DNA of 64,000 bases, taken from assembly GCF_024502345.1 (NCBI RefSeq), contig NZ_JALDNN010000001.1; one strand, 5' to 3'. Below the pieces are notes generated by a model. The model saw nothing but the letters and a program-made list of their open reading frames with translations. It searched no databases and was not told the origin of the DNA. The stretch comes from Escherichia coli. Lineage in GTDB: Bacteria; Pseudomonadota; Gammaproteobacteria; Enterobacterales; Enterobacteriaceae. This document shows positions 2,945 through 23,544 of this stretch, one piece after another (position 1 is the stretch's first letter; every line of letters starts with the position of its first letter). The position numbers and the translations under genes are program-made.

Positions 2945-3124
2945 ATGTTTGCAGGTTTACCTTCACTCACCCATGAACAGCAGCAAAAAGCTGTCGAGCG
3001 GATCCAGGAACTGATGGCACAAGGGATGAGCAGCGGCCAGGCAATCGCGCTGGTGGCAGAAGAGCTGCGTGCCAACCACTCCGGCGAGCGAATCGTGGCG
3101 CGTTTTGAGGATGAAGACGAGTAA
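2945..3124 (+). CDS. yoaH: UPF0181 small protein, 59 aa
   Basis: ATG at 2945, translation [59 protein letters not shown]; below ORF-track length cutoff. Confidence 0.8.
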
Positions 3125-3182
3125 CACACTAATCCGTATCGATTTCGTTATAGAAGCCGATGATCATTTGATTGTGAGAAAA

Positions 3183-3215
3183 AGGACGCTTTTTATATGT
3201 GATTAAAAGCGTCCT
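3183..3215. terminator. bidirectional stem-loop between convergent yoaH and yoaC
   Basis: aggacgcttttt ... aaaagcgtcct inverted repeat flanked by A/T runs. Confidence 0.5.
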
Positions 3216-3302
3216 GACCCATTTATGCTGATATAAATTTAACTCAGACCAGTGCTTTTAGTTCTTCCTGCATATATGTTGAAAAGTATTCAGGATTTTT
3301 AA

Positions 3303-3602
3303 TCACAGAACGTTCACCTGTCTCCATTTTTTTGCCCATCCAACCATTTTTTCCGTGAACCCAGGGTTCCAGCCTTCCTGGTCAGCTCGCGCCGTAATAT
3401 CAGCGGCACTCGCGGGTACTCCCAGTTCTTTTAAATATTTAAAGATTCCCTTCGCCGTGCTTTCATTCATCGAACTTGGTGTTGGCGCTGATACATCCAT
3501 GGCACCAATGAAATCCAGGGCTTTATCTATTACAGCAGGCATATTCTTATCCTTAAAATTAACCATGTTATCGATAAGGCTATATATGACCTTAATTTGC
3601 AT
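3303..3602 (-). CDS. yoaC: DUF1889 family protein
   Basis: 99-aa ORF; conserved position. Confidence 0.78.
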   Translation of the reverse strand: MQIKVIYSLIDNMVNFKDKNMPAVIDKALDFIGAMDVSAPTPSSMNESTAKGIFKYLKELGVPASAADITARADQEGWNPGFTEKMVGWAKKWRQVNVL

Positions 3603-3963
3603 CTAATATCAAAGGGATTATAACGATATGGCACGAGTTAACCTGTTGACATTCAGGTGTTTTAAAAGTAGCAGCTCATGGTGTGTTATCCAGTAAGATG
3701 GAGAAAATTAACTGTCAGTCCGCACGCTATAACCAGATTGTTCAGCTAAGAAAGAAAACCAGAGTTGCTAATCAAAGGGCGAACACAACGGCATGTTTAT
3801 GTTTATTTATATAGTTAGTTTTATAGATAAAATTGAAATTATAAATATAAATAATGAATTAGCAGAAGCATCAACAGTAATATCTTATTCTCTGGTCGAT
3901 TTATGTAAAACCGACCAGTATTATCGATAAATTATCGTCTGACTTATTTTGCTTCGATAAAGC

Positions 3964-4308
3964 TTACACCGCAGCCACAATCTTAATTTCAACTTTATAC
4001 TTCGGGTTCATCAAACCCGCTTGTACCGTGCAGCGCACCGGCGCATGACCCGCGACAACCCAGGCATCCCACGCTTTATTCATCGCCGCGAAGTCGTTTT
4101 TATCGGCCAGGAAAATGGTGGCATCCAGAATACTCGATTTATTGCTGCCCTGTTTTTCCAGCACGGCGTCAATCTGAGCCAGCGTGTTGGCGGTTTGCTC
4201 AAAGGCATCGGCGTCGAGGTTTTCCGGTACACCAGTGTAGTAGAGCGTGTTGTTGTGGATTACTACATCAGACCAGCGGGCTTCAGCATCGATACGAACG
4301 ATAGTCAT
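3964..4308 (-). CDS. yoaB: RidA/YjgF family protein
   Basis: ORF trimmed to second ATG (MTIVRIDAEARW...), 114 aa; GAGGA 7 nt upstream. Confidence 0.85.
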   Translation of the reverse strand: MTIVRIDAEARWSDVVIHNNTLYYTGVPENLDADAFEQTANTLAQIDAVLEKQGSNKSSILDATIFLADKNDFAAMNKAWDAWVVAGHAPVRCTVQAGLMNPKYKVEIKIVAAV

Positions 4309-4439
4309 CATTTTGTCCTCATTATCCTTCCATTTTCGTGCTGCAAAGACTGCCACAATGTGAGGTCGCCGTCACCACTTCAACTGGCGAAAGCGCCCTC
4401 ATCCTGACATAATCCCTGTTCAAATCAACAGGGGGTAGT

Positions 4440-6350
4440 GTGACGGACGATTTTGCACCAGACGGTCAGCTGGCGAAAGCGATACCAGGCTTTAAGCCGC
4501 GAGAACCACAGCGACAGATGGCGGTAGCCGTCACCCAGGCGATAGAAAAAGGCCAGCCGCTGGTGGTGGAAGCAGGAACCGGTACGGGCAAAACCTACGC
4601 TTACCTGGCTCCTGCGCTGCGGGCGAAAAAGAAAGTCATTATCTCGACCGGCTCAAAAGCGTTGCAGGATCAGCTCTACAGCCGCGATTTGCCAACAGTC
4701 TCAAAGGCATTGAAATATACGGGCAACGTGGCGCTGCTGAAAGGGCGCTCAAACTACCTCTGCCTCGAGCGTCTCGAACAGCAGGCGCTGGCGGGGGGCG
4801 ATCTGCCGGTACAAATCTTAAGTGATGTGATCCTGCTGCGCTCCTGGTCTAATCAAACAGTCGATGGTGATATCAGCACCTGCGTCAGCGTGGCGGAAGA
4901 TTCACAGGCGTGGCCGCTGGTCACCAGCACCAACGACAACTGTCTTGGCAGCGACTGCCCGATGTATAAAGATTGCTTTGTGGTCAAAGCACGTAAAAAA
5001 GCGATGGACGCCGATGTGGTGGTGGTAAACCATCATCTCTTTCTGGCGGATATGGTGGTTAAAGAGAGTGGATTTGGCGAGTTGATCCCGGAAGCGGACG
5101 TCATGATCTTCGACGAAGCCCACCAGCTACCGGACATTGCCAGCCAGTATTTTGGTCAGTCACTCTCCAGTCGACAACTGCTCGACCTGGCAAAAGACAT
5201 CACCATCGCCTACCGCACCGAATTAAAAGACACCCAGCAGTTACAAAAGTGCGCTGATCGTCTTGCCCAGAGTGCGCAGGATTTTCGTCTGCAACTCGGT
5301 GAGCCAGGTTATCGCGGTAACCTGCGTGAGCTGTTAGCTAATCCGCAAATTCAGCGGGCATTTTTACTGCTCGATGACACCCTGGAACTTTGTTATGACG
5401 TGGCGAAACTGTCACTGGGGCGTTCCGCCTTGCTGGATGCGGCATTTGAGCGCGCCACGTTGTATCGCACACGGCTGAAGCGGCTAAAAGAGATCAATCA
5501 GCCGGGCTACAGCTACTGGTACGAATGCACTTCGCGCCATTTTACTCTGGCTCTCACGCCGCTCAGCGTGGCGGATAAATTCAAAGAGTTAATGGCGCAA
5601 AAGCCCGGTAGCTGGATCTTCACCTCAGCAACGCTGTCGGTGAACGACGATCTGCATCATTTCACCTCGCGGCTTGGGATAGAACAGGCGGAGTCGTTGC
5701 TATTGCCAAGCCCGTTTGATTACAGCCGCCAGGCGTTACTCTGTGTGCCGCGCAACCTGCCGCAAACCAATCAACCGGGTTCCGCGCGGCAACTGGCGGC
5801 TATGCTGCGCCCGATCATCGAAGCTAACAACGGTCGCTGTTTTATGCTTTGTACCTCGCACGCCATGATGCGCGATCTGGCCGAGCAGTTCCGCGCTACC
5901 ATGACGCTTCCCGTATTATTGCAGGGGGAAACCAGCAAAGGGCAACTGTTGCAGCAATTTGTCAGTGCCGGTAACGCGCTTCTTGTGGCAACCAGCAGTT
6001 TCTGGGAAGGGGTGGACGTGCGTGGCGATACGCTGTCATTGGTGATTATCGACAAATTGCCGTTTACCTCTCCTGATGATCCACTGTTAAAAGCGCGCAT
6101 GGAAGATTGCCATTTGCGCGGTGGCGACCCGTTCGATGAAGTACAACTGCCGGATGCGGTGATTACTCTCAAGCAGGGGGTAGGGCGACTGATTCGCGAC
6201 GCCGATGATCGCGGCGTGCTGGTGATTTGCGATAATCGGCTGGTGATGCGCCCTTACGGTGCGACGTTTCTCGCCAGTCTGCCGCCCGCGCCGCGCACCC
6301 GTGACATTGCCCGTGCGGTTCGTTTCCTTGCGATACCATCCTCCAGGTAA
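4440..6350 (+). CDS. yoaA: ATP-dependent DNA helicase, DinG/Rad3 family
   Basis: 636-aa ORF, GTG start after GGGGG; Walker A (AGTGTGKT), DEAH box (FDEAHQL). Confidence 0.9.
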   Translation: MTDDFAPDGQLAKAIPGFKPREPQRQMAVAVTQAIEKGQPLVVEAGTGTGKTYAYLAPALRAKKKVIISTGSKALQDQLYSRDLPTVSKALKYTGNVALLKGRSNYLCLERLEQQALAGGDLPVQILSDVILLRSWSNQTVDGDISTCVSVAEDSQAWPLVTSTNDNCLGSDCPMYKDCFVVKARKKAMDADVVVVNHHLFLADMVVKESGFGELIPEADVMIFDEAHQLPDIASQYFGQSLSSRQLLDLAKDITIAYRTELKDTQQLQKCADRLAQSAQDFRLQLGEPGYRGNLRELLANPQIQRAFLLLDDTLELCYDVAKLSLGRSALLDAAFERATLYRTRLKRLKEINQPGYSYWYECTSRHFTLALTPLSVADKFKELMAQKPGSWIFTSATLSVNDDLHHFTSRLGIEQAESLLLPSPFDYSRQALLCVPRNLPQTNQPGSARQLAAMLRPIIEANNGRCFMLCTSHAMMRDLAEQFRATMTLPVLLQGETSKGQLLQQFVSAGNALLVATSSFWEGVDVRGDTLSLVIIDKLPFTSPDDPLLKARMEDCHLRGGDPFDEVQLPDAVITLKQGVGRLIRDADDRGVLVICDNRLVMRPYGATFLASLPPAPRTRDIARAVRFLAIPSSR

Positions 6351-22068: not shown

Positions 22069-23544
22069 TTAAATATGATGAATAATCACTTTGTTGCCCC
22101 CCTCGCTTTTCGCTTCGCGTAAGGCTTTATCTGCTTCCGTCATGACAAGCGAGATATTACGCGTGTCACCCGTTGAAAAAACCGTGCCAATACTGATGGT
22201 CATTTGTTCAGGAACATCATATCTGTTACTAAAGCCGGTCAGGAGTTCGACATTTTTACGCATACGTTCCGCAATGATTTTTGCCTGGGCACTATTGAGT
22301 TCGGTAAATAGCAAGCCAAACACCTCACCCTCCAGTCGCGCTAAAATATCATCGGGGCGGATGCTTTGCTGGATAATATCGACAATTGAAACCAGCACTT
22401 TATCACCCACACGATGTCCCCATTGGGCATTTATGCGCTTGAACTGATTAATATCAACCAGCATGACACAGAAGTCCTTAACAACAGGTCGCGACAATAA
22501 TGACTCTACGCTGTTGAAAAAGTAGCGCCGATTATAAATATTGGTCAGCACATCATGAACTGCCAGTTTGCTGGAGAGTTGCAGCTCCTGAAAAATGTTA
22601 TAAATCAGAAAAGACACAACAAACAGTTTACTGGAGACTTCAATCCCGCGACTGATATACCAGATGGTATAATTATACTCATCCAGAGTCAGTAGAAGTA
22701 AGTTGCAGCATAGCGATGCCAGACATAATAATGCTATTAACGGCCATAGTTCGCTGGCTAATCGTGTACGCATGATAATAAAGAACAGTAAAAATGCCCA
22801 CAGACAAACCAATATTTTTGTATAGTTGATTCCCCAGGTCGCAGTATGGTTGTCCGGACAGTAATCGACGACATACAAAGAATAGTCAGCGTTATAACTG
22901 CTCAGATTGTGTGCCAGAAGGGGAAAAACTAAAAAAGGAATCAGCGCCAGCAACAGAATGCCAGTTTTTTTCTTATTGTTGTCAAGGATGTTGTCTTTTC
23001 CATAACAAAAGAGCGCCAGCAAGGTTAAACAAATAAAACTGAGTTGGCGGAAAATATAGAAAATAGAAACATCATTCGACTTTGTCTGGATCAGTGTACT
23101 GCCGTTAATTGGTTTATGGATAATTACAATGGTTTCAACTAAATAGATAAGGCCACTTAAAAATGCAAGGCTTAAAATGAGTGTTGGTAAAATTTGTTTG
23201 TTAGTGAAATATTTCATTAACATGAAAAGAAAAATGACGGCGTTAAGGAAAAACAAAGCCACAACAACCATCAGGTAATTCATCTGTGGGATGAGTTTTA
23301 CATTTGTGTTTTCGTTATATAAGGTAGTAATGCAAAATAAAATTAACGTCAGCAATAAACTGAAAATAAAAAAGCTTTGAGCTTTTAATTTTTGTGTACC
23401 CATAGAAACCATAAAAAGGAGAGCAATGTGAGTGCTGGATTTTATTGATGGCAGAGATATATAGTTTTGACCAGGATCAATTTTCGTTAACGATAAAAAA
23501 TATTTAAAGAATAACCCCATGGAAATACGTGTTGACTGAATCAT
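22069..23544 (-). CDS. dgcI: GGDEF-domain membrane protein with degenerate active site
   Basis: 491-aa ORF; motif reads EGEVF (22318..22332) instead of GG(D/E)EF. Confidence 0.88.
   Translation of the reverse strand: MIQSTRISMGLFFKYFLSLTKIDPGQNYISLPSIKSSTHIALLFMVSMGTQKLKAQSFFIFSLLLTLILFCITTLYNENTNVKLIPQMNYLMVVVALFFLNAVIFLFMLMKYFTNKQILPTLILSLAFLSGLIYLVETIVIIHKPINGSTLIQTKSNDVSIFYIFRQLSFICLTLLALFCYGKDNILDNNKKKTGILLLALIPFLVFPLLAHNLSSYNADYSLYVVDYCPDNHTATWGINYTKILVCLWAFLLFFIIMRTRLASELWPLIALLCLASLCCNLLLLTLDEYNYTIWYISRGIEVSSKLFVVSFLIYNIFQELQLSSKLAVHDVLTNIYNRRYFFNSVESLLSRPVVKDFCVMLVDINQFKRINAQWGHRVGDKVLVSIVDIIQQSIRPDDILARLEGEVFGLLFTELNSAQAKIIAERMRKNVELLTGFSNRYDVPEQMTISIGTVFSTGDTRNISLVMTEADKALREAKSEGGNKVIIHHI

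Follow-up and report, generated by a model that had tools for sequence, protein, structure and literature searches.

The gap between yoaB and yoaC (positions 3543–3963 of the window, i.e., of the whole 64-kb stretch of Escherichia coli DNA that we analyzed) is very probably an ordinary, composite intergenic region between two transcription units on the same strand, with no hidden gene in it. In all probability, it comprises the 3′ UTR of yoaB, a weakly constrained AT-rich spacer of regulatory or junction DNA, and the promoter and leader of yoaC. These components are for the most part already described in published genome-wide datasets. No feature is annotated between yoaB and yoaC in K-12 MG1655 or in the other RefSeq records inspected, and the gap that is empty in GenBank is explicable from scattered genome-wide data, namely Term-seq, TSS maps, and ChIP-seq. 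Thus, the statement of a preliminary description that the region has no assigned element holds for the GenBank annotation but not for the literature, where TSS, Term-seq, and ChIP-seq datasets cover it. The yoaB 3′ UTR with its hairpin, the binding of YhaJ and YeiE, and the yoaC TSS are worth annotating; the importance of the locus beyond such tidy annotation is small. No function is known for yoaC and boric-acid sensitivity is its sole reported phenotype, thus the regulators of this gene provide the most useful lead.

Boundaries, neighbors, and conservation of the gap

The gene order in the window, pabB(−) yoaH(+) yoaC(−) yoaB(−) yoaA(+), is the arrangement of E. coli. The upstream neighbor of the gap is yoaB (3964–4308, − strand), a gene of the RidA/RutC family whose transcript ends within the gap, and yoaC (3244–3542, − strand) encodes a DUF1889 protein and is frameshifted in the window. 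The RefSeq annotation mapped onto the window places the yoaC start at the ATG at 3542 (MPAVIDK...), with the Shine-Dalgarno sequence AAGGA 7 nt upstream, which gives a gap of 421 nt. Hence, the non-coding gap noted in the preliminary description exists, although its left edge moves from 3603, which was set by the longest open reading frame, to 3543. The 60-nt in-frame extension of yoaC to 3602 was rejected, since indels of 1 and 2 nt break this frame in E. albertii and Escherichia sp. MOD1-EC7003. An older K-12 annotation, seen in the table of Kim et al. (2012), used a longer yoaC of 119 codons; as the start codon of yoaC differs between K-12 annotation versions, the boundaries of the gap shift as well. 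The frameshift itself is due to a 1-nt deletion in a T run at 3327–3333, which has seven T residues in the window vs. eight in K-12 (alignment with K-12 and AMSHJX01), and the apparent 99-aa reading frame at 3303–3602 is an accident of this deletion. Of 5426 complete E. coli genomes, only 34, from unrelated strains, share this T7 allele, which stems either from slippage that recurs or from an error in the assembly. The best match to the window among the 5426 genomes is 99.6% identical.

On the other side of yoaC, a hairpin AGGACGCTTTT...AAAAGCGTCCT at about 3177–3218 lies between the convergent yoaC and yoaH genes, at the position of strong 3′ ends in published Term-seq data for the − strand (K-12 1894457) and the + strand (1894497/8). 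This hairpin terminates transcription in both directions, and just beyond it, Rho termination is called antisense to yoaC (K-12 1894397, − strand).

In seven aligned Escherichia sequences (alignment A2), the gap falls into three zones that differ in conservation, and six E. coli alleles follow the same pattern. The yoaC-proximal block of about 135 nt (approximately 3543–3680) is conserved across Escherichia species and has 2.2% polymorphic sites among the six alleles, the corresponding values for the yoaC and yoaB coding sequences being 2.4% and about 3%, respectively. The distal AT-rich block (3681–3888) is a fast-evolving spacer with 14.4% polymorphic sites, poor conservation, and many indels between species; it is mostly absent in Escherichia sp. 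MOD1-EC7003, where the whole gap has only 271 nt. The yoaB-proximal block (3889–3963) is moderately conserved among the seven sequences, with 4.0% polymorphic sites among the six alleles. On a larger scale, the segment 3660–3895 shows only 90–95% identity in more than half of 5406 E. coli genomes.

The genomic context of yoaC is variable beyond Escherichia. Homologues of YoaC were found in 19 species-level genomes, and the order yoaA–yoaB–gap–yoaC–yoaH is kept only in the five Escherichia; in Buttiauxella, Citrobacter, and Lelliottia, the yoaC homologue occupies other genomic contexts. In E. coli wlxctx60 (NZ_AP045833.1, 1–1330), a cluster of fimbrial usher and subunit genes replaces yoaC downstream of yoaB; the hairpin at 3892–3918 described below is retained in this strain, and the homology to the window stops just beyond it. 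The yoaB hairpin is thus followed directly by a variable junction. Together with the relocated homologues, the end of homology in wlxctx60 suggests that yoaC and most of the gap constitute an accessory module joined to yoaB at the hairpin.

The 3′ end of the yoaB transcript

The preliminary description overlooked that some 76 nt of the gap are the yoaB 3′ UTR (3888–3963, − strand), which carries a hairpin. A Term-seq 3′ end at K-12 1893787 (+), corresponding to 3888 (−) in the window, was reported in three growth conditions with 1.2–6.5 thousand reads (Adams et al., 2021, supplementary file 1), and no other 3′ end is listed in the gap on either strand in these conditions. This RNA end sits 4 nt past an 11-bp stem formed by CUGGUCGGUUU and AAAUCGACCAG (3892–3918, − strand), which was detected as an inverted repeat, by folding, and by covariation. 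The − strand RNA 3880–3963 folds with a z-score of −4.08 vs. shuffles. Among six distinct Escherichia sequences, 93% of the cells of the hairpin are paired and two pairs have compensatory changes, and its three G-U wobbles fit the − strand RNA only, since the + strand RNA would have A-C mismatches instead. Covariation was seen in the yoaB hairpin but not in the yoaC leader, which has no conserved fold. Outside the hairpin, the fold z-scores of the yoaC leader and of + strand stretches are near 0.

The stem is followed by AGAGAAUAAG and not by a U tract, and a terminator consensus scan returned no sites in the gap; the yoaB 3′ end has the stem-loop of a canonical intrinsic terminator but not the U-rich stretch directly behind it. 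A region of Rho termination is called further downstream on the same strand at K-12 1894019 (+), i.e., 3656 (−) in the window, with a Rho score of 3.15 and p = 2.4e-6 (Adams et al., 2021, supplementary file 2), by a method of low resolution that compares 800-nt windows. Taken together, the missing U tract and the downstream Rho region suggest that read-through is stopped by Rho and that the RNA is then trimmed back to the hairpin. The yoaB mRNA runs 76 nt past its stop codon and ends 4 nt after the conserved 11-bp hairpin; its read-through would most likely be halted by Rho in untranslated RNA richer in C than in G (the + strand skew across the tract is G over C), and the product would be trimmed to the hairpin after the Rho stop. 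As an alternative, the 3′ end may be made by a weak intrinsic terminator. The Rho call at 3656 could instead have arisen because bicyclomycin de-represses the yoaC promoter.

The proposed Rho stop and trimming would resemble the Rho-terminated, hairpin-trimmed mRNAs of Dar and Sorek (2018) and Adams et al. (2021) in the stable hairpin, the 3′ end 4 nt downstream of it, the lack of a U tract, and the Rho region about 230 nt beyond the yoaB end on the same strand; it differs in that the Rho call for yoaB, resolved only to 800 nt, falls on the TSS of yoaC. With intrinsic terminators and with 3′-UTR-derived small RNAs such as CpxQ and SroC, the yoaB end shares a reproducible 3′ end and an mRNA that finishes in a conserved stem-loop, whereas it has no U tract, and neither internal processing nor binding to Hfq is known for it.

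The latter likeness raises the question of whether a fragment of the yoaB 3′ UTR (up to 76 nt and ending in the hairpin) accumulates as a regulatory RNA, which we consider quite unlikely. The stable 3′ end is reproduced in all three conditions at the read numbers given above, and conservation is higher in the hairpin and the adjoining upstream block than elsewhere in the distal gap. However, the 3′ end (...CCAGAGAA) lacks a U tail to which Hfq could bind, the 3′ UTR has no known TSS or internal 5′ end, and protection of the 3′ end together with overlapping protein-binding motifs explains the conservation equally well.

The same end of the gap contains a minor + strand TSS at 3931, listed in the supplementary TSS table of Kim et al. 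(2012) as K-12 v2 1891768 (−) with 12 reads and assigned there to yoaA with a 509-nt leader. It is the only + strand TSS among the entries of that table for the gap, and it is directed outwards, so that transcription from it would cross yoaB in antisense and continue towards yoaA. Besides this listing, the hexamer TATTAT at 3919–3924 is placed at the right distance for a −10 element, so that a functional yoaB antisense RNA or a long alternative yoaA transcript could start here. Yet the read support is very low, spurious starts are common in AT-rich DNA, the RNA 3931–4010 (+) is unstructured (z-score +0.92), no matching 3′ end is reported, and yoaA has its own upstream region between yoaB and yoaA. 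We give little credence to a function of this TSS, and retain Rho termination and trimming to the hairpin as the preferred account of the yoaB 3′ end.

The AT-rich spacer and its regulators

The extended AT tract pointed out in the preliminary description is borne out, and it goes far beyond chance: the GC content falls to 18% in the 100-nt segment 3792–3891, lower than anywhere else in the 64-kb window, whose mean is 50.6%. Only 0.14% of the 100-nt segments in the window have 25% GC or less, and they form two clusters, at 3751–3935 and 23290–23417. Helical phasing of AA/TT at 10–11 bp was not detected in the tract, as 23–82% of shuffled sequences score as high. Beside the lowest-GC tract, TCGATAAATT (3924–3933, + strand) matches the H-NS high-affinity motif tCGATAAATT (Lang et al., 2007) at all 10 positions; the 64-kb window has no second exact copy. 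With its very low GC content and this motif, the gap is a candidate H-NS-bound AT-rich region. It resembles H-NS nucleation sites of the proU type in the exact motif next to the AT-rich tract and in belonging to an accessory module that is relocated or replaced in other strains and genera; it differs from them in the lack of helical A/T-tract phasing and in that H-NS binding is here predicted from the motif. Thus, the suggestion that the region is a curved, H-NS-type yoaC promoter stands as regards the conserved proximal block, the published TSS, RNA polymerase, and regulators, and the exact H-NS motif, whereas this simple phasing test does not support intrinsic curvature.

Two LysR-type regulators have been connected with the gap. 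The ChIP-seq peaks of the LysR-type regulator YhaJ were reported in the gap upstream of yoaC in both EHEC and UPEC, and yoaC was named among the known YhaJ-regulated genes (Connolly et al., 2019). Mapped via the CFT073 coordinates, the centers of the UPEC peaks fall at about 3884–3902 in the window. The predicted YhaJ box TTATAGATAAAATTGA (T-N11-A; Connolly et al., 2019, SI Tables S3 and S4) is located at 3821–3836 (+), and a similar copy, TTATCGATAAATTATC, is found 100 nt away at 3921–3936; the peak center is 65 nt from the published box and lies between the two similar boxes, both of which match by half. The box at 3821–3836 satisfies T-N11-A but reads TAG-N7-TGA, so that of the two halves of TCA-N7-TGA, the dyad that Palevsky et al. 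defined, it retains one and is a weak match; dyads with one mismatch also occur at 3653–3665 and 3676–3688. The region resembles other promoters of the YhaJ regulon (yqjF, ybiJ, yhaK, yhhW) in its in vivo peaks and predicted T-N11-A box, whereas this box is only a half-dyad and is remote from the promoter, some 280 nt before the yoaC start codon. For the second regulator, YeiE, binding upstream of RNA polymerase at yoaC and activation were reported by Gao et al. (2018). In the literature searched, we found nothing that links yoaC with H-NS or with a small RNA beyond these two regulator papers.

In the model that we propose, the AT-rich spacer is weakly constrained DNA of the accessory yoaC module and would act as a far-upstream regulatory region of yoaC, to which YhaJ binds in vivo in EHEC and UPEC. 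The perfect H-NS motif makes it likely that silencing by H-NS would be countered by the LysR-type activators.

The length and composition of the gap had also raised the possibility of an unannotated small RNA, in particular one transcribed from a + strand TTGACA hexamer or from promoter-like sites of the AT tract and ending at the hairpin 3892–3918. We consider such an RNA extremely unlikely. The hexamer is present on the + strand, at 3646–3651 and not at 3644, and it is conserved; however, a single TTGACA is a chance-level event, a sigma-70 scan calls no promoter there, and the sequence at 17-nt spacing, TAGCAG, provides no usable −10 element. Read on the − strand, the hexamer is part of ATGTCAA(C/T)AG, which is invariant in seven Escherichia sequences, and its conservation is thus explained by its location inside the yoaC promoter block. 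A promoter-like site with 9 of 12 matches is present at 3806–3833 (+), but the number of such sites, two, compares with 3.2 expected in shuffled sequences. The RNA 3790–3935 (+) folds with a z-score of −2.23 vs. shuffles, which is mostly owed to the hairpin, whose wobbles become A-C mismatches on this strand, whereas 3650–3795 (+) folds at −0.15. Moreover, no part of the locus is more polymorphic than the one that would form the body of this RNA, and MOD1-EC7003 has lost it. A scan of 3100–4500 against Rfam gave only noise at E ≤ 10, Term-seq in three conditions shows no + strand 3′ end, and the table of Kim et al. (2012), which covers both strands in limited conditions, has no TSS downstream of the hexamer; yoaB and yoaC entries are absent from the SMRT-Cappable-seq supplements. 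The published transcript maps span few growth conditions, which leaves room for a condition-specific transcript. The proposal of an unannotated small RNA in the gap is not supported, with no Rfam match, no conserved fold, no inward TSS of its own, and no + strand 3′ end.

A small protein encoded in the gap has next to no likelihood in our estimate. Three candidate frames exist both in the window and in K-12, with 45 codons (3793–3930, +), 43 codons (3683–3814, +), and 34 codons (3530–3634, −), and the last one is intact in six E. coli alleles and three sister species. However, the 45-codon frame is interrupted in four of the six E. coli alleles, by a premature stop in three and by a frameshift in one, and the 43-codon frame is truncated in CFT073 and shows changes that are mostly amino-acid replacements; for neither of them did tblastn and allele comparison reveal an unbroken frame at the syntenic position of other Escherichia species. 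The 34-codon frame begins with GTG, overlaps the start of yoaC, is broken in E. albertii and MOD1-EC7003, and lies in DNA that is conserved for reasons of promoter and leader. In addition, K-12, whose annotation includes small proteins, has none annotated here, and the small ORFs yoaL and yoaM map elsewhere. With each candidate frame broken within E. coli or in sister species, the small ORF envisaged earlier is not supported.

The yoaC promoter and leader

The core promoter region and 5′ UTR of yoaC occupy the conserved proximal block (3543–3680, − strand), as indicated by the seven-sequence alignment, the low polymorphism, and the data of Gao et al. (2018). This block holds one or more yoaC promoters and a 5′ UTR of about 70–115 nt. 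A published yoaC TSS (K-12 v2 1892041, 21 reads; Kim et al., 2012, supplementary TSS table) maps by sequence to 3658 (−), and its −10 element at 3665–3670 reads TACTTT in the window and TACCTT in K-12. The better-conserved −10-like hexamer is TATAAT at 3617–3622 (−), with a predicted promoter role: it is identical in six of the seven Escherichia sequences of alignment A2 and replaced by GATAAT in E. whittamii. The sequence contains no match to a −35 element for this hexamer, and the TSS table of Kim et al. (2012) lists no TSS for it; TCAACA was rejected as its −35 element since the resulting spacer of 21 nt is too long. Which TSS of yoaC is the main one is uncertain, as the TSS at 3658 lies 48 nt upstream of that predicted for the TATAAT.

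The base at 3667 that alters the −10 element of the published TSS from TACCTT to TACTTT is one of two single-base differences of the window, the other being at 3713, that are absent from seven other aligned E. coli alleles. The same region contains an imperfect palindrome, ACCTG-N9-CAGGT (3641–3659), which was found in the sequence and the alignment, encloses the TTGACA hexamer at 3646–3651, and is a candidate regulator site; by eye, it is a poor match to CRP and FNR sites, and both assignments were rejected.

Translation of yoaC starts from a block of 25 nt, GGTTAATTTTAAGGATAAGAATATG (3540–3564, − strand), which includes the Shine-Dalgarno AAGGA at 3550–3554 (−). According to blastn, the upstream sequences of the homologues, and alignment A3, the ribosome-binding block GGTTAATTTTAAGGATAAGA(A/G)xATG is nearly invariant in Escherichia, Buttiauxella, Citrobacter, and Lelliottia, and the YoaC homologues of these four genera are only 66–75% identical at the protein level. 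Outside the block, the yoaC leader diverges across genera, as does a third of the protein. The near-invariance of the block across genera is the one mildly unusual feature of the gap. Among 14 sequences from the four genera, the leader has no conserved fold (consensus of −1.3 kcal/mol, no covariation), and the single-sequence fold has a z-score of about 0.

It is conceivable, though rather improbable, that the 25-nt block serves as the operator at which an RNA-binding protein or a small RNA acting in trans regulates yoaC post-transcriptionally. Such an operator at 3540–3564 would imply conserved translational control of the orphan gene yoaC, and the fast-evolving AT-rich part upstream would even then stay plain regulatory or junction DNA.

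Just upstream of this block, the leader contains a 10-nt palindrome, TTATCGATAA (3568–3577), which occurs a second time 353 nt away in the yoaB 3′ UTR (3921–3930), where it overlaps the H-NS motif and the second YhaJ-like box.
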